Position numbers and translations under genes: made by a program. A stretch of 62,748 bases of DNA, counting the filler, from Stramenopiles sp. TOSAG23-3 (lineage: Eukaryota), in assembly GCA_900128585.1 (NCBI GenBank). It is 5 parts of 5 records of this genome, joined end to end, with 100 filler letters (N's around TTAATTAATTAA, not from the genome) between each part and the next. Parts side by side here need not be neighbours in the genome. Positions count along the whole stretch, not along the records: positions 39,177 to 58,597 come from LT642401.1; 4 more parts are not named here. The stretch is one strand, 5' to 3'. How positions within the stretch are numbered: the first letter of the stretch is position 1; each line of letters starts with the position of its first letter. Below, piece by piece: positions 4,829 to 60,647 of this stretch. The notes beneath the pieces were generated by a model. It did no database searches, was not told the DNA's origin, and worked only from the letters and a program-made list of their open reading frames with translations.

Positions 4829-7800
4829 ATGTCGGACGACGAAAACACGCTCGACCCCAATATGTTGGACCAAAAGTTGGCAGATATGGGCAGCAAAGTC
4901 AAGGATGTACAGCCAGGGGATGAAGAGGCAGATGATGATGCTTTAGGAGGAGACGATAGTTATGTCTCAGAAAACAGTGCTGCAAATATCGAAGATGAAA
5001 AAAAGGAAGCCGGAGAAATAGACGCCGGGGGAGCTGAAGGTAGAGCGGAAGAAAATGATGCGTTGAGCAACGCGTTAAAGGAAATTGGAGAAACCAACCC
5101 CGCAGAAGATGGGGATGGGGCACCAGCCACGCCCGACGACGACTCTGGAGCGGCGGCAAACGAGAGCGTGGGGGATGCAAACGAAGAATATAGCGGCGGC
5201 GACGTGCCAGATCAAGCTGGGGAAAGCGGCGGTGATGCGGCGGAGGCCGCCCCGGCCAACAACGCTGAAGAGGGCGAGGCAACTGCCGTAACGGCCGAGG
5301 AGGGCGGCGGCGAAGCGGCCAAGGGGGCAACCGATGGCGGCGCGACCATGGCGGCGACTTCAGAAGGCGAAGCAGTCGCTGGAGACGAAGCGGCAAACGA
5401 CAGCGAGGAGGGGGAAAAAGAAGAAGAAAATAGAGCAGGGGGTGAGCCAGAAAGTAGCAACCCCGACAACAGCACAGTTAGCAATGGGCAGACCACCCCC
5501 AATGAAGTTGGTGGTGCGGAAGAGGGCAGGCCAGGAGCCGAAGACGGCCAAGGGAACACTGAGGCTGCCAATGGGGGCGCAACTTCTGAGGGGAACACCG
5601 GCGCCGGTGCCAGCAAAAAGGAAGGGATTCACGCGGGCAAAGGAACAGAAGCCGGACCGGGGGAGAGGGGCGAGAACGGCGCCGCAGGGGGCACTGCTGG
5701 GGCGAAGGTAGACAACGGCGGCTCAGACGGCGATGCGCAGGCAACAACCGCCAGCGCCAATGGCGGCAAAACCATCATAGAAAACGGAGCTTTCCCGAAC
5801 GGGATCGTCCCGTTGCCCCCACCGTCATCGCCACCACCCCCTTTGACTAGAAAAGGCGCCCTTGCCGAGCTGAAGATGAAGCTGCTGCCGGTCAATGCAA
5901 GTTGGGGATCCCCTGCGCGGGAAGCTCCGAAGCTGATGCGCGACGGGAAAGGCAAGATCTTCGCACGGTTGCCTCCGCCCCCAGCCAACATCAGCATCGA
6001 AGACGTCAAGGGCCAAATACAAAGCATGGCCCAGGAGTTTCAAGGCATGAAGGACGGCAGACATCGGCGGCGCAACGCCCCCCCCCGAAAACGCAGAGGG
6101 AGAAATGGAAGGGGCCCGCCAGGAGCAAGGGAAAGAAAAATCCCCGCTCCCACCACGGGGAAGGCTGCGCCACTCTCGCCGGAGCAAGAAATGAAGCAGC
6201 TCGAAGGAATTCGTGATCAAAGAAAACGCGTCGAAACCCTCGCGACATCGTGGGGGGTCAGCACTGCTCCGTTAGTAGGCGGGACACCGGCCCCTGGTAA
6301 ATCCAAGTATGGGCGCGCTACTGGGAAAAAGGCACGGAAGAAGGATAAATCGACGGCAGAGGGGGGCGCCCAGGTCGAGGCGGAGGAGAAAGAGGACCCG
6401 TTGCACTGCGTGTTTTCGAGGGTCCGCGAACTGTTGCAAGCAAACCTGACGAGGGTCATTGACATGTTTCGATCGATGGACACCAACGGCGATGGGGTGC
6501 TGGAAAAGAAGGAAATGAGCATGGGACTGGGCAACCTAGGATTTACCCTAACGAAAGGTGAAATGACCAACCTGTGGCATGCCTTCGACAAGGACAATTC
6601 GGGAAGTGTCGAGTACAAGGAGTTGTATCAAATTTTAAGGGATTCTGTCAAGGATTCTGTGGATGCCGAAGAGTTGCTCGACAACGGGGAGGGGTCGAAA
6701 AACATGACCGCCAAGGAAAGGCGGCAACGGGAGTACCAGCTGAGGGTCCAGCGAGGGAAGAAAGAATCCAACCGAGAGCGAAAAGCGGCCAGAAAGCGAA
6801 TACTCATGTTCCAGCAGCGGCAAGACGAGAAGAAGAAGGCAGAAGAATCGGTAAAGCAAACCGCCCTAACTCAGCGAACAGTCAGCTCAAAAATCAGCGA
6901 AGAAGCGTCGAAAAGGGCCCGCGCCATGGCCAGAAAGCGGATTGCGGAAAAGAAGAAGAAGACGGAGGAAAAGGAAAGGAAAATGAGGGAAGCGGAAGAG
7001 AAAGCACTGAAGCAGAAAATAGTTGAGCAGCAAGGCATGGCGGCGGTCGGCCACATGCGCATAGTAAAGCGATTGAACAAAAGGATCCACAAAGTGAAAA
7101 GTGAAATTCAACTGGAAAACAAAATGGAAGAACAGCATGGAATGGAGGTGGAAGCGAACACATCCAACGACAAGGTTGAACAGGAGCTGAGAGCGTTCCA
7201 AGAGAGCCGCAAGCACAGCGAGCTTGCCCGCGAAACCAAGCGCCGTTTGCGCAAACAGAAAATGAGAGCCGTCAAATTAAGGGAAGAAGAAAAGCAGTAC
7301 CAACGGGACAAATTGCGAATGTATCAAATGCATAGAAATTATATGGAGGAAGTAGGGGCATCGGTTGGTGCCACGGTAGTCTCGCCGGTGCGAGTTCCAC
7401 GACGGTAAGTCCACTCAAAATCGAATCTCTTTGTTACGAAATGTACACTCACCATTCAAACACGACTGTGTTGAACCTGTTTTTCTCCGTCTCTTTTTTC
7501 TGTGTGTGATTCTTCTTCCCTACTCTTTAACGCCTGCAGCAACGAGGGTCTTGTCTTACCCGACCATTCGGTGCGCCCAAAGATTCGTAAAGAATTCTTG
7601 TACAAAGAGTGCGTTGCTTTTTTATTCACTTTCCAAATCCTCTTACCCTTACCTTATTTCACAGCCTTCCCCCCGTTTCCCGAATAACGCAAACAACTAA
7701 CACGTTACTTTTTATTATTTTCTTGTAGGCTGAGGGATTTGCCCACCGGGCAACCGAGCCCAGATGCAGTGCAACGGGCGGAAGAAGAGCTGGGCGCACG

Positions 7801-40453: not shown

Positions 40454-41608
40454 TTAGAAGGGCGGTGGCGGTGGAAATAAACAGCCTACGGGACGCCGGT
40501 CCTCCTCTGGGGCCTTCTTTGGGTATTGCCCTGTGTATTTCCCTGCCCCCTCTCTGGGTATTTCCCTGGGTACTTCTCTGGGTGCTCCTATGGGCGGCGG
40601 TGGCGGTGTATCTATCGTGTCTCCTTGATAACCAGTATCTCCTTGATAACCGGTGTCTCCTTGATATCCCGTGTCGCCTTGATAACCAGTGTCGCTTTGA
40701 TATCCGGTATCATCCTGATAACCAGTCTCGCCTTGATATCCAGTATCTCCTTGATAACCAGTATCTCCTTGATAACTGGTATCTCCTTGATATCCTGTGT
40801 CGCCTTGATATCCGGTATCACCCTGATACCCAGTGTCGCCTTGATAAACGGTATCTCCTTGATAAACGGTATCTCCTTCAGTGATAGCCCGTATATGACT
40901 TGGGTTAAAATCGTGTTGGGCTTCTTCATATATCTCCTTCAAATATTCTCCGTTCAAATCTTCTCTCCTCTCTCGTTCTGATGGCTGTTGCCGTTCGAGT
41001 TTCGAACGGTAAAATATTCGTATGGCACTGCAGCAATTCTCGTGTTCTTCTTCCATGAATTTCGAACAAGTAAGCGTTCGTGTGGCATCCACAGCCGACG
41101 AAAACAAACCTAGTGACATAAAAAATGCAATCAGCGTATACCATACACTACACCGATCTACACACTGGGGACGAGAATTTGTGCAATGTATACACTTGTA
41201 AACGACCAGAACTTCCAGCACCGTCATGATCCAGCACAACATCATCCATACAAAAACGTGACGCCTCGGAAACTGTTTGAACTGTTCGCCTATACTCTCG
41301 CGTATACAAAAGAGAGGAGGACATATACAACATTGGCATGGTTTGGTAGAGAAATTTCGCGCCGCATTTTCGCCTTCTGTCGCTTCTACAAAACGTCTGC
41401 GGCAAGGCACCCACTTGAGGCCGTATGGATATACCAATATTGAGACAAGGTTAAGCCCAAACAGTGCAATGGAGGAAACCATATGAAACGACGATATACC
41501 ATTCTTTGAAAATCTCCCCATAAAAAAGAGTTGTGCAGCGAAAATTACCAGGAACCACAACGGTAGCCCACTAATTTTCGTTGGTTTCCGTTCCTTTCTG
41601 CGCGGCAT
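40454..41608 (-). CDS. Multi-pass membrane protein with collagen-like (GDTGYQ)14 repeat and Pro-rich tail
   Basis: About 4 hydrophobic segments with Cys-rich loops; 18-nt tandem repeat at about 40618-40879. Confidence 0.7.
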   Translation of the reverse strand: MPRRKERKPTKISGLPLWFLVIFAAQLFFMGRFSKNGISSFHMVSSIALFGLNLVSILVYPYGLKWVPCRRRFVEATEGENAARNFSTKPCQCCICPPLFCIRESIGEQFKQFPRRHVFVWMMLCWIMTVLEVLVVYKCIHCTNSRPQCVDRCSVWYTLIAFFMSLGLFSSAVDATRTLTCSKFMEEEHENCCSAIRIFYRSKLERQQPSERERREDLNGEYLKEIYEEAQHDFNPSHIRAITEGDTVYQGDTVYQGDTGYQGDTGYQGDTGYQGDTSYQGDTGYQGDTGYQGETGYQDDTGYQSDTGYQGDTGYQGDTGYQGDTGYQGDTIDTPPPPPIGAPREVPREIPREGAGKYTGQYPKKAPEEDRRPVGCLFPPPPPF

Positions 41609-42261
41609 ACCTGTCGTCTGGTGGCCTTAAGTTTAGTACCACTCTTTTCAAGTTTTTCTACGCAACGAATTTTTGAACTGCTGCCGAGTTCCTGGGGGAA
41701 AACCTCCGTATGACCGTTTGCATTTACTACCTCCTTACACACTGCATCCTGCATGTTTGCAAATAGTTAAATAGTCATCGTCTAGCGAGCATTCTTCTTC
41801 TTCAACTCGAAAATATTTTTATTATATTATTATTAGAAGACTATTATAATATTAATTAATAATTATTTATTTATTATTTTTTATTTATTGTTCTTCTTCT
41901 TCTTCTCTTCGACTTCTAGGTACTTCGTACCGAAGAAGGTCGAATAGAACTTCCGAGGTAGATATAAGATAGTTAGGATAAAAACTTATTAGTTTAATCT
42001 TAAGTTGCTAACGTGTATTATTTATTACACATTTTGTTGTATTAATTTATTAAAAAATAAATCAAAAATTATAATAATAATGTCATACCAAGGTAGCTAA
42101 AAAATATGCGAAGAGATAAAAATTCATTTCGATGAATCTTTCCAAACGATTCCTAATGTAAAGAAAATTGTGTGCGTGCGTGTCAAGTTGTACACATCCC
42201 AACGAACCCGTTCGGATTATTGTCGTTTCGTTTCGTATCGTAGAATACAGTTCGTGAGAGT

Positions 42262-44076
42262 ATGCCAGTGAAACTTCATACGGAAACCCCGTTGGTTTTC
42301 TCTTCCACGTTGACCGCGACGGCGACGGAGAATGGGGAGACGCCGGTACTTTTGAAGTTGGATAATTTGCAACCAAGTGGTTCGTTTAAGATCCGTGGCA
42401 TCGGTAACTTGGCGCAACGTGCGTTTGAGAGGGGAAAGAAGAGACTCATTTCGAGTTCGGGGGGGAACGCGGGGATGGCAGTGGCGTACGCCGGCTCGCA
42501 GTTGGACATGGAAGTGAAGGTCGTAGTACCAAGCAGCACCCCAGAGTTTGCGAGAAAGAAGATCAAAGCCATGGGGGCACACGTCATTGTGCACGGGAGC
42601 GTTTGGGACGAGGCGGACAAGTACGCCCGGGGCCTGTGCGAGAAGGACAGCGAGGCGCAGTACTGCCACCCGTTCGAGCACGTAGACACGTGGGAAGGCC
42701 ACTCCAGCTTGGTGGGGGAAATAGACGCCCAGTGCAGGGCCCAAGGGTACGACCGGCCCGCGTGCGTTGTCCTTTCTGTGGGCGGCGGCGGGCTGCTGTG
42801 CGGCGTTGCGCAGGGGTTGCACGCGAAGAAGTGGGCGGACGTTCCGATCGTTACGGTAGAGACAGACGGGGCCCACTCGTTCTACGCGTCGCACGAGGCG
42901 CAGAAGTTGGTGACCCTGGACGGCATTACGAGTGTCGCAAAATCGTTGGGGGCGCTGACCGTGAGCGAGCAGTGCTTGACGTGGTCGAAGAAGCACGACA
43001 TACACCCGTTGGTAATCAGCGATAGGCAGTGCGTGAACGCGATGAATTCGTTTGCGAACGACCACCGGATGCTGGTGGAACCGGCGTGCGCGGCAGCCCT
43101 GACGGCGGCGTACGAGGGCCTGATCCCGTCGGAGGTCTTTGGCGAGGGGCGGCGAACGCGGAGGCGCGGGAAACGCCCCATCGTGGTCATTGTCTGCGGC
43201 GGGAACATCGTCGACTTGAAGGCCATCGACGCGTACAACCGGATGGTCGACCAGAAGCAGATCCCGGACAGCGCTGCCCTTCTGAAGAAACGAGGCATGA
43301 TCGAGCGTTTTTACGGCAGCTACGTGGACCCTTTCATCGACCAGGTAGCGTTCAACTGCCCTCCAGGGCCGCCGTTGGTCCCTGCCTGCTACGTGATCAA
43401 CGCCTTCAAAGCGGGCACCTTGCCGATGTGCCTGTACTTGATGCACCATTTTCAAAACTATTCAAAGTCTGCCGTGCTAATCGCCGCGCTGCACGGCAGC
43501 TACGGGGGCTGCTGGTTCTTGAAGCACTACGTCATCCCCGACCATTATTTTATGCAGAAAATCACGTTCGTCTCCGCGTTGATGATGGGCATGGTCCTCT
43601 CGTTCTACTGGGCGTCCGCGTACTTGGTGATCAGCGCCCCGAGCAAAGGGGACTTCATCGGCCCGGTTCGTATGTTCGTCGCGATGATGATGTACATTTT
43701 TGGGGTCGTTCTGATGATGGCGTCCGATACGCAGAAGTATTATGTGCTGAAGTTGGTCCGGGAGAAGAGGCTGGGAAAGATCCTGATCTCGGACGGCTGG
43801 TTCAAGACGTGCCGAAACACCAACTATTTGGGGGAGATACTGCTCTACAGCTCGTTCGCCGTGTGCGCCCAGTCGTGGATCCCGTGGGCCTTCAACGGCG
43901 TCTTTTGGAGCATCATGTTCGTCGCCCGTTGGATGGGGAAAGAGGCATCGTTCCGAAGAAAGGTTGGCGGGGAGGAGTACATGGCGAACAGCTCGCTGAT
44001 CCTCCCCTTTCCCCTCTTTGGAATGTGCACCAGCAGGAAAGAAATGGGCGTGTCGCGCGCGAAGAAGGAGGCATGA
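42262..44076 (+). CDS. Fusion: PLP-dependent L-serine dehydratase/threonine deaminase plus DUF1295/steroid-5-alpha-reductase-like membrane domain
   Basis: KLDNLQPSGSFKIRG, SSGGNAG, SVGGGGL, LVEPACAA and VCGG, followed by HGSYG..W, SDTQKY and GWFKTCRNTNYLGE. One uninterrupted ORF. Confidence 0.88.
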   Translation: MPVKLHTETPLVFSSTLTATATENGETPVLLKLDNLQPSGSFKIRGIGNLAQRAFERGKKRLISSSGGNAGMAVAYAGSQLDMEVKVVVPSSTPEFARKKIKAMGAHVIVHGSVWDEADKYARGLCEKDSEAQYCHPFEHVDTWEGHSSLVGEIDAQCRAQGYDRPACVVLSVGGGGLLCGVAQGLHAKKWADVPIVTVETDGAHSFYASHEAQKLVTLDGITSVAKSLGALTVSEQCLTWSKKHDIHPLVISDRQCVNAMNSFANDHRMLVEPACAAALTAAYEGLIPSEVFGEGRRTRRRGKRPIVVIVCGGNIVDLKAIDAYNRMVDQKQIPDSAALLKKRGMIERFYGSYVDPFIDQVAFNCPPGPPLVPACYVINAFKAGTLPMCLYLMHHFQNYSKSAVLIAALHGSYGGCWFLKHYVIPDHYFMQKITFVSALMMGMVLSFYWASAYLVISAPSKGDFIGPVRMFVAMMMYIFGVVLMMASDTQKYYVLKLVREKRLGKILISDGWFKTCRNTNYLGEILLYSSFAVCAQSWIPWAFNGVFWSIMFVARWMGKEASFRRKVGGEEYMANSSLILPFPLFGMCTSRKEMGVSRAKKEA

Positions 44077-44169
44077 GGGTTTGACGGCATATAAGATATG
44101 ATAAGAAGATATCAACGTATCATATGATATCATATGTTATGTACATAACACTAAAAACTCTCTCTTTCG

Positions 44170-44296
44170 AATTATGGGTATAAAAAAAAACTGATTATAT
44201 AGTATGTTTTAAGACTCTCAAGATTATCTCAATTGTCGACTAATTATGGGTATATATGCACATACATCCTAAAAACAAGAAAATTGGCTGTTATTT
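44170..44296. mobile_element. Repeat module B flanked by a 13-bp direct repeat, followed by inverted module A
   Basis: AATTATGGGTATA at 44170-44182 and 44242-44254. B core at 44203-44236. AAAAACAAGAAAATTGGCTGTTATTT at 44271-44296. Confidence 0.65.
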
Positions 44297-44736
44297 ATCC
44301 TAATTCTTAATCTTAGAAGGGCAAACTCTGTAATGCAATGCGTGCCGCTCGTGGCCCTTTCCTCGGTGCACCCACTGTTTACTGTTCACACCGCCCCCGT
44401 TGGCGCTGCTGCGGGCTTACTGGCAGAAGAGTGTCGTCTGCGCGCGAGGAGGAGGAGGAACGTCAGATAACACCAGCGTATCATACGAGTATCGTTGCAA
44501 GTAAGAAATTAGCATTATTTAGTTGTGCTCTAGACGACGTTTGCTATACAAATACACGGTATAAATATGGTACATACATTATTACACCCCATGAACCAGG
44601 TAACAAAAACTATCGCCACCGCACCTGCAGCCCCGCTTCGCCTCATGCCCCCCACTCTTATGGGGCAGGCAGTGAGTAGTTGCCAGCAGCGAGCACAGCC
44701 AGCCCTCTCAGCCACCGGCTGCCCGCACGTGACGTT

Positions 44737-46319: not shown

Positions 46320-46520
46320 GAGAGAAAGAAAGAAAGAGTCGAAAGAAAGAGTCGAAAGAAAGAAAGAAAGAAAGAGTCGAAAGAAAGAAAGAAAGAAAGA
46401 AGGAAAGAAAGAAAGAAAGAAAGAAAGTATACGAAAGAAAGAAAGTACGAAAGAAAGAAAGAAAGAAAGAAAGAAGGAAAGAAAGAAAGTACGAAAGTAT
46501 ACGAAAGAAAGAAAGTACGA

Positions 46521-46552
<32 letters not shown>

Positions 46553-46600
46553 AGGAAAGGAAGAAAGAAGGAAGGAAAGAAGGAAGGAAGGAAGGAAGAA
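46320..46600. repeat. Degenerate (AAAG)n/(AAGG)n satellite
   Basis: Purine-rich tandem array with interspersed GTAC/GTCG variants. Confidence 0.9.
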
Positions 46601-47067: not shown

Positions 47068-50000
47068 ATGGCGAGAACAAGACAACCGAGCTGGAGGAGG
47101 AGTTCCCGGCACGACAGGACAGCGGTTCGCGGGGAATCCTCCGCTTCCTCTTCCACCGCCGCTTCAGCCTCCACCACCACCACCACCACCACCACCTCCA
47201 CCTCCTCCTCCTCGAGGCGGTCCCGGAGGCGCGGGAAGAGCAACGAGGAGGAGGACGCAAAGGCCGCGGCGGAGGCCACGGAAGACGTGGACTGGGGCAT
47301 GGAGTACTACGCCAAGCTCCTGAAGAGCGGCGCCGAGGTGTACGTTCGGGACACCCCCACTGTGAGGTGCAGAGAGGAAACGAGGCCGTTCGTGCAGAAG
47401 AAGGGTACCGTCCGGCACGCCCAAGGGAAGCAGGGGGCCAGCACCTTCTACACGGTAGAAATGGACGGGACGAAGGACAAGATCGTCGTCCTCGGGAACT
47501 CCATCATCCCGCTCGACATTTCGAATACCCCGAAAAGCTTTGTCCCGGACAGCCTCGTGGAAACGCGGAAGAAGAGCGGGCGGAAGAAGAAAGAGAAGCG
47601 GGCCTCCCTGACCTCCTTTCCCGTCGGGGAGTGGGTAGGGAAGCAGGTCGTGTTCACCGAAGGCCGGTACATTGGCGAAAGCGCCTGGGTCCTGGGCCAC
47701 GGGAGCGGCCTGGCCCACCTGATCATGGGGGATGACGACGACAAACGGTCGAACCCGCAGATCATCTCCCGGGTCCCGAGCCAGCTCATCGTCGAGCCAG
47801 AGGACGACAATGACGCGATCGAGCCGTTCGAACCGGCCCAATTCATGGGGAAAACCGGCACCGTCACGGACGGGTACGGGGAGGGCCTGAAAGGCTTTGT
47901 GGCGGGGCACGGGAACGGGTACCTGCTGATCCAGCTCACGGGGGCAAAGAAGTACCCGCTGCTGAAGGTAATCTCGCAGTTCTCCCTGGACGGGGGCGAC
48001 GAGGGCGGAAGGAATCGGGCGGCGGCGGCAAGCGGCCCTGCGGCCGACGGCGGGGCGAAGGGGGAAAAAAGAAAGCGAGGGGCGGAGGACAAGGCCGAGG
48101 ACGGCGCCGCCGCCGGGGGCAAAAAGGCGAAAGTCGACGCCGGGGGCGCCGCCGGGGCGCCGGGCAAGACGGCCAAGGGGAAGAAGAAGAAAGGGAAGAA
48201 GTCCTCGAATGACGAGGACGACGACGAGGACGACGACGAGGACGACGAGGACGATGATAGCAGCGAGGACGACGACGAGGAGGACAGCAGCGAGGAGGAG
48301 GAGGACGACGACTCGGAGGATGACAGCTCGTCGGAGGAGGAGTCCTCGTCCGACGAGGACTCCCCGGAGAAGCCCGCGAAAGGCAAACCTTCCCTCCGGG
48401 CCCGAAGGCGGACGCCCGGTGCCGCGGGGGACGGCGCGAGGAAGAGGCCCAATCCGCCGGGTCGGCCGGGGCGAAAGCCCAAGGCGTCCGCCGACAAGCC
48501 TGGAACGGAAAAGCAGCCCGCGCCCATCAAGGCAAAGACAGCCCGCGGCCGCGCCGCCAAAGAGCTTTCCACGGACGGGAACGGCTCCCCGCTCAGCCCC
48601 GAGCGCCGGAAGGAGATGGAGCGGATCGCCAAGCGCGAGAAGGAGAAGATGAAAGCGAAGGAGAAAGTGCTGAAGGAGCAGGCGGTCAAGCGGAGCTCCC
48701 GGTCCACCAAGGGCCAGCGTTACGACCAGCGCACGTACCGCCAGGGATCGCACGCCCCGGTCGTCCCGTTGACGGACCGCGACCGGGAGGACGCCGAGGC
48801 CGCCGCGCAGTTCTCGGCCCACGTTTCCCTGTACCACGACCGGGTGAGGAAGTACATGGAACGCGAAATTGAAAAGCAAAAGATATGCGGGCGGACGGAC
48901 ATCACGGACGCGCTGATGCGCTTGGAGCGCGAGTGGGCATGGGACGACGGTGACAGCGAGGACGACAGCTCCCCCACGTACGAGTGGGAGCACGAGCGCA
49001 CGTCCTCCATTTTCAACCTGGTGTCGGAGACCTTGTGCCCCGCGTGCAAGCAGCCGTTGAGCAGCGCCCAAGCCTCGTGCTGGAACGTGGCCTGCGTCCG
49101 GTGCCCCGTTTACTGCGACATCAAGGACCTGAACGCGGACGAGATCAAGCGCCTGCACGACGAGGCGAGGCGGCTTAGCATGTTCGAGACCGTCGCACCG
49201 GTGGCGTTCGTGGGCACCCCCGCATCGCTGCGACAGACCGACGACGAGTTTCAGCCGCTCCCGGCCCTGAGGGAGCTGCCCCAGCCCAAAGAGCCGGAAA
49301 CGGAAGATCCAAACAAACGTGCCTCGCGCAGCACGGCTCCGAAGGAGGTAGAAGAAGAGCCACAGCTGACGTGGCGCCAAAAGCTGAACCACATGAGCAA
49401 CATAGACTCTATCACCAGGCCCGTGTCATCGTACATTGAAATGATGAATTACGACGACGTCCGCGGGAGGCCCCGCTTCTACAATGCGGTGACGGGGTTC
49501 CAGAGCACGAAAGACGACGAGGGCATCACCCCCGCCGAGTACGAGCGCAGGCTGTACATGCCGGAGCTGCAGCGGCAAATGGCCTACGCTAAGGGGGCGC
49601 TGGAGCCTGTCGAGGAGGTCGACGACTCGTACGTAATCACCCAGTTCGAGACCGCAGCGAAGGACCCCTCGGGAAAGACCCCGCAGTTTATTAGAATAAA
49701 GCCACGGCCGAGGCTTCACCCGCTGGACGATTTGCGACGGCGCGTAGCGGAAGAAGAAGCCGAGGAGAAACGCCACAAGTACGAGGAAGAAGAGCGGAAG
49801 ATCGAGGAGGCCGCGTGGAGGGAAAAAAAAACCCGAGCGGCCGCGCGACTGAACGCCCCCCCTGCTGCGGCCCCAAGCGCAGACGCCCCCACCCCAAACG
49901 GTACCGTGGCGGAACCGGGGGCAGCGGTCGCCGTAGACAACAGTAGGAAAACTGCCTTAGAGGAATTAGGAAACCCAATGGAAATAGATGCGCCGGCTGT

Positions 50001-50103
50001 CGGCCAACCCCCTCTCCCCCCTGCCGCTGCTCCTGCCGCGCCTGTAGTACCTCCTTCTGAAAATGCAAATCCCGTACCTGCTGCGCCTCCTCAGCAGTCA
50101 TAA
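47068..50103 (+). CDS. Large putative nuclear protein: KOW/SH3-like repeats, acidic tract, Cys-rich zinc finger
   Basis: First ATG at 47068 (MARTRQ). Two G..G...V.GHG.G units, a D/E/S tract, basic NLS clusters, and CPACK...CWNVACVRCPVYC. Confidence 0.75.
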   Translation: MARTRQPSWRRSSRHDRTAVRGESSASSSTAASASTTTTTTTTSTSSSSRRSRRRGKSNEEEDAKAAAEATEDVDWGMEYYAKLLKSGAEVYVRDTPTVRCREETRPFVQKKGTVRHAQGKQGASTFYTVEMDGTKDKIVVLGNSIIPLDISNTPKSFVPDSLVETRKKSGRKKKEKRASLTSFPVGEWVGKQVVFTEGRYIGESAWVLGHGSGLAHLIMGDDDDKRSNPQIISRVPSQLIVEPEDDNDAIEPFEPAQFMGKTGTVTDGYGEGLKGFVAGHGNGYLLIQLTGAKKYPLLKVISQFSLDGGDEGGRNRAAAASGPAADGGAKGEKRKRGAEDKAEDGAAAGGKKAKVDAGGAAGAPGKTAKGKKKKGKKSSNDEDDDEDDDEDDEDDDSSEDDDEEDSSEEEEDDDSEDDSSSEEESSSDEDSPEKPAKGKPSLRARRRTPGAAGDGARKRPNPPGRPGRKPKASADKPGTEKQPAPIKAKTARGRAAKELSTDGNGSPLSPERRKEMERIAKREKEKMKAKEKVLKEQAVKRSSRSTKGQRYDQRTYRQGSHAPVVPLTDRDREDAEAAAQFSAHVSLYHDRVRKYMEREIEKQKICGRTDITDALMRLEREWAWDDGDSEDDSSPTYEWEHERTSSIFNLVSETLCPACKQPLSSAQASCWNVACVRCPVYCDIKDLNADEIKRLHDEARRLSMFETVAPVAFVGTPASLRQTDDEFQPLPALRELPQPKEPETEDPNKRASRSTAPKEVEEEPQLTWRQKLNHMSNIDSITRPVSSYIEMMNYDDVRGRPRFYNAVTGFQSTKDDEGITPAEYERRLYMPELQRQMAYAKGALEPVEEVDDSYVITQFETAAKDPSGKTPQFIRIKPRPRLHPLDDLRRRVAEEEAEEKRHKYEEEERKIEEAAWREKKTRAAARLNAPPAAAPSADAPTPNGTVAEPGAAVAVDNSRKTALEELGNPMEIDAPAVGQPPLPPAAAPAAPVVPPSENANPVPAAPPQQS

Positions 50104-50289: not shown

Positions 50290-50337
50290 AAATAACAGCC
50301 AATTTTCTTGTTTTAATAACAGCCAATTTTCTTGTTT
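50290..50337 (+). repeat. Tandem pair of repeat module A
   Basis: AATAACAGCCAATTTTCTTGTTT twice; the same motif occurs at 2290-2312. Confidence 0.8.
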
Positions 50338-50989
50338 AAAAAATGAGAGTCCTACTATATATAATTTGTTTAATTATCATAAAAATAAATCATTTAAAAC
50401 CATCTTCTCCTCTCTCCTATACTTTTTTTTAGGTTTATAGATAGATATTTTATTAACATAGCTATATCATAGTACTCGTCTTCTCGTATTATAGGATTAA
50501 TACTTCTTTTTATTTATTATTATACACCTTCTTGGATGGTGGCTTATAATAAAGCTATAATAATGTACAGCAAGTCATCGTCACGTATTTTATTTAATCG
50601 ACGAGGATGATTGAATAATCACACTTATTGGACTTATCCAATCCAATCCAATCCAATCTTTCTTTTATAAAAAGGCGGCAAACGAAGAATAAGAATAATA
50701 GATTGATCAGAGAGTGTAATAAAAGAGAGAGAGAGTTTATCTTATTGTACATTATTAGCTATTATATATATATAATATTGTATACTAAAATTATGATATC
50801 CCCTATGAATATTTGAAATCCATTCTCATTATATACGAGGAGTAGTGTACAGTGTAGAAGCTGTGGACATTTTGGGCAGCAAGAGGTATAATAACACACA
50901 ATGAAGAAAAAATAATAATAATAATAATAAAAAAAAAAAAAGGAAAAAAAGTAGTCTTCTTTCTTCTTCTTCTTTCTTCTTCTTCTTCT

Positions 50990-60535: not shown

Positions 60536-60647
60536 AAACAAATTATATAGTATGTGTTAAATGCATGATAAGTTTAAAACAAGAAAATTGGCTGTTAAGT
60601 AATTAAATTTAGCTTCGTCATACCCTAATCCTAACTTGGTTCTGTAA
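60536..60647 (-). mobile_element. Repeat family copy (B fragment, inverted A plus C)
   Basis: 60597-60647 is the reverse complement of 2238-2288 with 2 mismatches. 60576-60597 is inverted module A. Confidence 0.7.

Follow-up and report, generated by a model that had tools for sequence, protein, structure and literature searches.

An expressed gene joining a serine dehydratase to a sterol-reductase-like membrane module in a marine stramenopile

Enzymes of the SDS family convert L-serine to pyruvate and ammonia and L-threonine to 2-oxobutyrate, and the yeast protein Cha1 is a further member. Among membrane enzymes, those of the SRD5A type bind reduced nicotinamide adenine dinucleotide phosphate (NADPH) on the cytosolic side, and the Pfam family PF02544 (Steroid_dh) also includes the SRD5A3/DFG10 polyprenal reductase and TECR. 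Here we describe a gene of Stramenopiles sp. TOSAG23-3 (GCA_900128585.1) that encodes both kinds of protein on one chain, a dehydratase at the N terminus and a reductase-like membrane module at the C terminus. The stretch of DNA that was analyzed, hereafter the window, is 62,748 nucleotides long and consists of five parts joined with filler; all positions count along it, and the gene lies in the part taken from LT642401.1 (39,177 to 58,597).

The combination of these two well-known superfamilies appears to be an undescribed domain architecture made of known parts. A full-text literature search, with subscription journals and supplements outside its scope, returned no paper joining a serine dehydratase with DUF1295, MAST-4, or a stramenopile gene fusion, and among the listed papers that mention DUF1295, none concerns this fusion by its title.

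Reading frame and transcription

The coding sequence (42262..44076, plus strand) comprises 604 codons and a stop in a single exon without internal stops, and an in-frame stop lies six codons before its ATG. Three Pfam families score above their cut-offs, namely, PALP over residues 6 to 287 (E = 4.3e-64, 217.1 bits against a cut-off of 35), Steroid_dh over residues 443 to 583 (PF02544; E = 4.5e-10, 40.1 bits against 22.6, profile positions 14 to 148 of 150), and DUF1295 over residues 432 to 554 (PF06966; E = 1.5e-7, 31.6 bits against 20.4, covering only profile positions 83 to 205 of 235). The ERG4_ERG24 family (PF01222; residues 494 to 570, E = 8.4e-5, 21.9 bits) falls below its cut-off of 27. 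The GC content at third codon positions (GC3) is 0.80 in the N-terminal half and 0.82 in the C-terminal half.

Our starting point was a first-pass annotation, made from the letters of the window alone, which had read a complete SDS/CHA1-type enzyme to about position 43260, running without a stop or an evident intron into a membrane domain with a G-x-F-x-x-x-R-N-x-NY-x-GE signature, a fusion that it did not know from model organisms. The uninterrupted, intron-free frame, the extent of the dehydratase, and the signature itself (present as GWFKTCRNTNYLGE, residues 512 to 525) all agree with that reading, as does the outcome of the literature search.

At least 20 public sequencing runs from 13 studies contain sequence of the fusion gene, and an identical 604-residue protein is encoded on at least five contigs of differing length. 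Positions 41700 to 44700 were compared with three RNA runs, each from a different study, and with an unrelated DNA run (X5). The interval for which the first-pass annotation had proposed an RNA check, 43200 to 43350, is crossed with 0 differences and 0 gaps by RNA-library contigs of two studies, X8 record 25 (42643 to 44054) and X17 record 3 (42948 to 43620). Contigs of the independent DNA run also span the domain boundary unchanged, with no stop at the junction. Against the coding sequence as a whole, X5 differs by two adjacent substitutions at 42641 to 42642. It also carries a length variant just upstream, with 4 other bases in place of 36 bases of the 5' spacer (42159 to 42196).

Metatranscriptome contigs cover 42226..44078 on the plus strand (X17 from 42226 and X8 from 42240; X8 to 44054 and X17 to 44078), which gives a minimum span for the transcript. 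RNA cover is absent at 41700 to 42204 and at 44326 to 44527, whereas the DNA run covers both flanks. Furthermore, a neighboring ribosomal protein gene is 5 to 10 times deeper than the fusion gene in RNA and flat with it in DNA, and therefore the RNA signal is not carried-over DNA. Transcription thus runs, at least partly, over the fusion gene as one unit, and the gene, a single exon in the compact genome of a marine stramenopile related to MAST-4, is real and expressed. Its name at JGI, "L-serine/L-threonine ammonia-lyase," describes only one half of the protein.

The two halves and their junction

Residues 1 to 334 (42262..43263, plus strand) form an SDS-type L-serine/L-threonine ammonia-lyase domain dependent on pyridoxal 5'-phosphate (PLP). 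Residues 4 to 326 align with the full length of rat SDS (1pwe, E = 2.8e-77) and also with human SDS (4h27 and 1p5j) and SDSL (2rkb), and the dehydratase part ends near residues 326 to 334 (nucleotides ~43240 to 43263). Together with 5c3u, these are the closest solved relatives (E = 1e-55 to 3e-77), followed by threonine deaminases (1e-21 to 1e-26), while cysteine synthase and threonine synthase models match this half far more weakly. The domain is 78% and 61% identical to two relatives of the fused clade and 44 to 52% identical to 37 stand-alone eukaryotic and bacterial proteins of the dehydratase family. An alignment of 40 sequences has 33 invariant columns, and the domain keeps every one, K43 and the GGGG stretch among them. 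The former lies in the motif SFKIRG (42382..42399, plus strand), where F42, K43, R45, and G46 are invariant, and Lys43 is, we presume from SDS structures, the lysine that forms the Schiff base with PLP. The GGGG loop (G174 to G177; 42781..42792, plus strand) is likewise invariant, and we take it to be the phosphate-binding loop for PLP known from SDS. Judged by the residues kept, this half is a catalytically intact SDS/CHA1-type PLP enzyme, and its family membership predicts that it deaminates serine and threonine. In another eukaryote, a 670-residue EukProt protein (P0017) carries an SDS-type dehydratase (PALP, 2e-74) fused to the NAD-binding domain of a D-2-hydroxyacid dehydrogenase (6e-47).

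Between the two halves lies a linker (residues 327 to 346; 43240..43299, plus strand) whose length and sequence vary among fused orthologs. Its end overlaps a predicted amphipathic helix (residues 337 to 364; 43270..43353, plus strand), with 7 of 28 residues charged and a mean hydropathy of 0.12, which occupies the place of the first transmembrane helix of SRD5A in the AlphaFold2 (AF2) model and corresponds to the N terminus of standalone homologs; six further helices follow in the model. The dehydratase half has neither an N-terminal extension past the SDS fold nor a signal or transit peptide, and because of the latter, the N-terminal domain of 334 residues should be cytosolic. With a cytosolic N-terminal domain and six spans, the C terminus would therefore be cytosolic too, and the cofactor face of the module would lie on the same side as the dehydratase. 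A full-length AF2 model, built from an alignment of fused proteins only (20 rows from 4 clusters), was uninformative on domain packing (predicted local distance difference test [pLDDT] score of 57.9, predicted template modeling score of 0.53, and C-terminal half below 50 in pLDDT).

The membrane module (residues 347 to 585; 43300..44016, plus strand) is complete, comprises the six further predicted helices, and resembles the SRD5A, sterol-reductase, and DUF1295 families, as a putative NADPH-dependent ene-reductase. Elsewhere it exists as a standalone protein of about 240 residues. Over its entire length, the module can be aligned to standalone homologs of 240 to 295 residues at 49 to 57% identity, and the start methionines of these homologs fall on M346 of the window protein; what was appended is therefore a whole gene and not a fragment. 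All 26 residues that are invariant in an alignment of 29 family members are kept. Among them are H, G, Y, and G of the LHGSYG motif (43489..43506, plus strand), a candidate substrate or catalytic site, and D, Q, and K of the DTQKY motif (43726..43740, plus strand), which aligns with qK of the MaSR1 sterol reductase and with SD-Y of SRD5A2. The cofactor-site signature GWFKTCRNTNYLGE (43795..43836, plus strand) is common to the sterol reductase (GWWGIARHMNYFGD) and SRD5A2 (GLFTYVSGANFLGE). Over both motifs, DTQKY...GWF..RNTNYLGE aligns with QK...GWW..RH.NYFGD of the sterol reductase and SD.Y...GLF...GANFLGE of SRD5A2, and N521 and E525 thereby pair with the Asn and Glu of GANFLGE, as D489 does with the Asp of HSDY.

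Profile and fold comparisons lead in the same direction. A profile of the 29 members searched against the Protein Data Bank (PDB) matched MaSR1 at 3.5e-6, SRD5A2 at 0.023, and isoprenylcysteine methyltransferase (ICMT) at 0.083. The AF2 model of the module alone (pLDDT, 88.8) was compared with solved structures using VIA-align, where helical bundles need a Z score of about 13 or more to be meaningful, and gave a Z of 14.9 with 4quv (217 residues), 14.1 with 7c83 (222 of 251), and 13.4 with 7bw1 (210). Every solved structural relative is either a reductase of lipids or steroids or a methyltransferase of prenyl-cysteine. At E ≤ 0.001, DUF1295 is matched by 26 of the 29 members, Steroid_dh by 25, and ERG4_ERG24 by 10. 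As for the DUF1295 label of the first-pass annotation, PF06966 scores above its cut-off, but the match is to part of the profile, Steroid_dh scores better, and the module is not a canonical DUF1295 enzyme. On a bacterial contig (L015), a family member sits immediately upstream of a canonical DUF1295 gene (1.9e-53, 181.8 bits), the pair occupying 4965 to 5675 and 5685 to 6458 (both on the plus strand), so the two represent distinct paralogous lineages, and by this sequence comparison the module is a distinct subfamily.

Distribution, origin, and function of the fusion

Fused orthologs were sought with word-based searches and counted as clusters at 90% identity. The fusion is present in four such clusters: the window's own; P0003, 65% identical and labeled MAST-4 by EukProt, which fits the stramenopile setting proposed at the outset; P0004, 56% identical, with 41 members of mostly 642 to 645 residues; and P0005, 56% identical, with members of 633 to 634 residues. 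A truncated fifth protein (P0007) also continues into the module. When 1.84 billion representatives were searched exhaustively with a profile of the module, 1992 relatives scored E ≤ 0.001, of which 326 reached E ≤ 1e-30, and the family spans marine protists and bacteria. Among the best 150 relatives, 4 have the length needed for both domains (P0163, P0003, P0266, and P0292), and PALP occurs only in P0003. Likewise, among the best 80 of 568 confirmed metagenome loci, a single one (L001, of the P0004 cluster) has PALP upstream in the same frame, and at the other 79, no PALP gene was found within the flanks.

The fused forms make up a single clade in the tree of the module (43 rows), with a support of 98 in the Shimodaira-Hasegawa-like approximate likelihood ratio test (SH-aLRT) and the standalone proteins P0124 and P0127 as sisters, and also in the tree of the dehydratase (46 rows; SH-aLRT, 95). 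Since the trees of both halves recover one fused clade, a single fusion event is likely, in which two genes found apart in other lineages were joined and then coinherited. As judged from the aligned sequences, both halves have stayed under purifying selection.

Relatives of the module have acquired other partners. In a protein of 503 residues from a culture transcriptome (P0203), a family member (profile E = 1.8e-63) is fused to a complete cis-prenyltransferase (PF01255, 7e-67), and in P0266 (668 residues) and P0292 (889 residues), the module follows N-terminal domains resembling short-chain dehydrogenases/reductases (SDRs), with a YxxxK motif and a weak adh_short match; the language-model neighbors of these domains are all SDR clusters. 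All three proteins fall outside the immediate clade of the window protein in the module tree. P0163 (559 residues) carries the whole membrane module duplicated in tandem on one chain. A tight clade of module homologs (P0140, P0141, P0145, P0161, and P0162; 430 to 494 residues) shares a conserved N-terminal extension of ~200 residues with no Pfam family, in which a hydrophobic segment resembling a signal comes first and a stretch of SPSPSPS is also present. At 4 bacterial loci (10 open reading frames [ORFs]), the module neighborhoods hold an S4-domain protein, a PNPOx-like protein, a serA-like dehydrogenase, a GFO/IDH/MocA oxidoreductase, a LysR regulator, and a canonical DUF1295 protein, and no consistent pathway was found among them. 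The cis-prenyltransferase and SDR fusions point to a lipid or isoprenoid substrate over a dehydratase product. In dolichol synthesis, a cis-prenyltransferase, an SDR (DHRSX), and an SRD5A-type polyprenal reductase are reported to act in one route (PMC11250103). Because this route pairs the same three kinds of enzyme, an isoprenoid enal is a reasonable, if tentative, candidate for the substrate of the module family.

The explanation that we favor, with some reserve, is that a cytosolic dehydratase is tethered to a membrane-bound NADPH ene-reductase while each half runs its own ordinary reaction. The N-terminal half would deaminate serine and threonine in the cytosol; about 20 variable linker residues and the amphipathic helix would join it to the C-terminal half, which would use NADPH to reduce a conjugated double bond in a hydrophobic lipid or isoprenoid substrate. 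The fusion would then contribute coexpression and membrane tethering of the dehydratase, with no channeling of an intermediate. The use of NADPH and the lipid nature of the substrate are suggested by analogy with related enzymes.

Several observations weigh against this picture or parts of it. The analogy on NADPH and lipid substrates draws on distant relatives of 14 to 16% identity, and the cytosolic placement of the N-terminal domain is a hydropathy argument, the AF2 model putting helix 337-364 in the position of the first transmembrane helix of SRD5A. The retention of the fusion across divergence to 56% identity suggests a selective benefit that independent activities leave unexplained. The closest relative of all (P0006; 82% identity, sister in the tree, on a 149-kb contig) is called as a protein of 342 residues and, from about residue 300 onward, departs from the others as a frameshift would make it; one close lineage, at least, may therefore have a broken fusion or splice it differently. 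One 81.8-kb contig, moreover, has a gene of the P0005 type as two calls (P0337 and P0342), and it is possible that these calls and that of P0006 reflect indels, introns, or real splits. As for transcription, all of the RNA evidence consists of assembled contigs, with transcript ends and any extra internal transcript beyond their reach, and RNA libraries can contain DNA. The oligo-dT run X20 has no contig over the whole junction, its short pieces stopping at 43265 and resuming at 43437, which was not counted as absence.

Among the other explanations, it is rather unlikely that only one half is catalytically relevant, the module serving to pin or dimerize the dehydratase, or the PLP domain sensing amino acids on behalf of the reductase. 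A variable and flexible linker would suit such an arrangement, but both sides keep all of their family-invariant residues, 33 of 33 for the dehydratase alignment and 26 of 26 for that of the module. The halves are also about equally conserved, with identities to the fused orthologs of 65% for the whole protein and 66% for the C-terminal half in one comparison and 56% and 54% in the other, which is unexpected for a mere anchor.

Coupled chemistry was the hint that the first-pass annotation had drawn from the fusion, in the manner of a Rosetta stone: the module would act on the product of the dehydratase. In this scheme, it would reduce 2-aminoacrylate or 2-iminopropanoate, or the threonine analogue, released by the PLP domain, with the net result of turning serine into alanine or removing the intermediate. 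The conservation of the fusion in four protein clusters with both halves intact is in its favor, and so is established chemistry, from which one may argue that the C=C bond of 2-aminoacrylate, conjugated to a carboxyl group, is formally like those of the enone, enoyl, and enal substrates of the superfamily. UsgR, a fungal DUF1295-like membrane protein, was shown to be an ene-reductase acting on a conjugated C=C bond of small aromatic molecules, so that the clan can reduce small nonlipid compounds (PMC8597850). The P0017 protein described above means that the pairing of a dehydratase with a nicotinamide-dependent reductase recurs. However, outside one clade the dehydratase and the module are neither adjacent nor fused (1 of the 80 best loci), and the fused modules show no extra divergence, with end branches of 0.25 to 0.30 versus 0.26 to 0.48 in their standalone sisters. 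The solved relatives, going by their structure titles, all take hydrophobic substrates from the bilayer, and the other fusions of the module, to a cis-prenyltransferase and SDRs, indicate isoprenoid metabolism. Since no evidence was found that either half acts on what the other produces, we regard coupling as improbable, and the hint is unsupported. Its most explicit form, a two-step machine in which the PLP domain makes an enamine and the tethered reductase adds a hydride from NADPH, giving alanine from serine and 2-aminobutyrate from threonine or acting as an enamine trap, strikes us as quite improbable. We know of no member of the SRD5A/DUF1295 clan with enamine-reducing activity. The accompanying suggestion that serine catabolism is tethered to lipid metabolism of the endoplasmic reticulum is possible, and vague as stated.

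It is also very unlikely that the C-terminal half acts, in the manner of ICMT or PEMT, as a methyltransferase dependent on S-adenosylmethionine. Such a reading could draw on the shared structural clan (Z of 10.2 to 11.7 over 158 to 188 residues with ICMT structures), on relatives annotated at source as "isoprenylcysteine O-methyltransferase Ste14," on weak PEMT matches in 3 relatives (E = 0.002 to 0.009, below the cut-off), and on P0203, which matches ICMT at 1.2e-8. Nevertheless, the reductases score higher over more residues, and neither ICMT nor PEMT (PF04140 and PF04191) matches any of the 29 family members at E ≤ 0.001 or the window protein at E ≤ 0.1. The N-Y-x-G-E motif, moreover, fits the alignments with the sterol reductase and SRD5A2, whereas the aligned stretch of ICMT is RHPMY, without the acidic residue. 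Because the profile, fold, Pfam, and motif evidence all favor reductases over ICMT, we read the module as a reductase rather than a methyltransferase. Finally, an artefact, be it misassembly, a stop lost to sequencing error, or read-through of two separate adjacent genes, is scarcely credible, for the short or split calls of P0006 and of the one contig in the P0005 cluster stand against the identical ORFs on at least five contigs, base-for-base agreement over the junction in an independent DNA run and two RNA studies, a frame kept in orthologs at 56 to 65% identity, both halves in one frame at L001, and uniform GC3.

The favored reading, that of a tethered dehydratase with two separate reactions, would add a membrane-tethered serine/threonine deaminase in MAST-4-like bacterivores, a small new fact on the amino acid catabolism of uncultured grazers. 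If the halves merely work side by side, the outcome is an annotation correction only; if the two-step machine were true, it would be the first substrate assignment for the module subfamily. This subfamily is large, we met no functional study of it, and families of this kind offer few points of access besides their conserved fusions. Its three fusion partners (dehydratase, cis-prenyltransferase, and SDR) suggest as candidate substrates polyprenal or other isoprenoid enals, enoyl-CoA, and the dehydratase enamine.

Genomic setting and comparison with known systems

The window around the fusion gene is a gene-dense eukaryotic nuclear region, with long intron-free ORFs and AT-rich spacers between them. 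Its other genes encode the ribosomal proteins uS11 and eS8, a La protein, an XPG-family nuclease, and glycosyltransferases, and ARAGORN found no tRNA in it. Two minus-strand ORFs that overlap the fusion gene (42217 to 43449 and 43477 to 44133) were dismissed as shadows of its high-GC3 frame. The upstream neighbor (40454 to 41608, minus strand) is an ORF of 384 residues with hydrophobic segments, in which ~14 copies of an 18-base unit (40617 to 40878) encode G-D-T-G-Y-Q hexapeptides ahead of a tail rich in proline; its only family match, to Collagen, is weak (1.8e-10). Further along, the window contains an (AGAA)n microsatellite of 67 copies (46323 to 46597) and an ORF of 1011 residues without a Pfam match (47068 to 50103, plus strand), which has acidic GAC/GAG repeats at 48211 to 48341 and lies where both the GC content (0.65) and the AT skew of the window are highest.

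A 21-base motif occurs in five copies, four of them exact (2293 to 2313, plus; 44272 to 44292, minus; 50294 to 50314, plus; 50318 to 50338, plus; and 60576 to 60596, minus), against 0 expected from 100 shuffles, and every copy is in a spacer that follows a stop codon. Depth spikes over the copy at 44272 in every run (271 to 376 in RNA and 3591 in DNA), and the motif is therefore highly repeated or shared. The very high depth at 44199 to 44297 comes from contigs of 28 to 38 nucleotides over a repeated AT-rich motif, and no RNA gene was identified there, Rfam having been no part of the analysis. The 21-base motif may mark 3' ends or act as a terminator, or it may be a dispersed repeat of small size.

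Set against known systems, the module is closest to two groups of reductases. With the SRD5A family (SRD5A2, 7bw1; PbSRD5A, 7c83), its predicted fold can be matched over the whole module, PF02544 is above the cut-off, and the cofactor motif aligns. Nevertheless, identity is 14 to 16%, and the first helix of the module is amphipathic, with 7 of 28 residues charged, and may not span the membrane, whereas that of SRD5A is hydrophobic. The module family also has invariant motifs of its own, LHGSYG..W..K....PD and DTQKY. SRD5A has an N-terminal catalytic Glu/Tyr pair; the alignment covers the C-terminal cofactor motif, and the pair is unmapped on the module. MaSR1 (4quv) gives both the best PDB profile match and the best structural Z, with QK...GWW..RH.NY.GD aligned. 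However, the module matches only the C-terminal half (chain residues 181 to 427) of this ~430-residue reductase, and the ERG4/ERG24 proteins have an architecture of ~10 transmembrane helices, in contrast to 6 to 7 helices in the module, with PF01222 below its cut-off.

The remaining likenesses are more partial. DUF1295 (PF06966) is above the cut-off in the module and matched by 26 of the 29 members, but positions 83 to 205 of a profile of 235 are all that the module covers, and it scores better on Steroid_dh. With ICMT and PEMT it shares the clan and a similar C-terminal cofactor hairpin, while differing in a lower Z over fewer aligned residues and in having N-Y-x-G-E where the aligned ICMT has P-x-Y. 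The dehydratase half, for its part, keeps the lysine of SFKIRG, the GGNAG loop, the GGGG loop, and EPAC of mammalian SDS and SDSL. The known enzymes are soluble proteins of ~320 to 370 residues, whereas the window protein runs on into a membrane module of ~270 residues.

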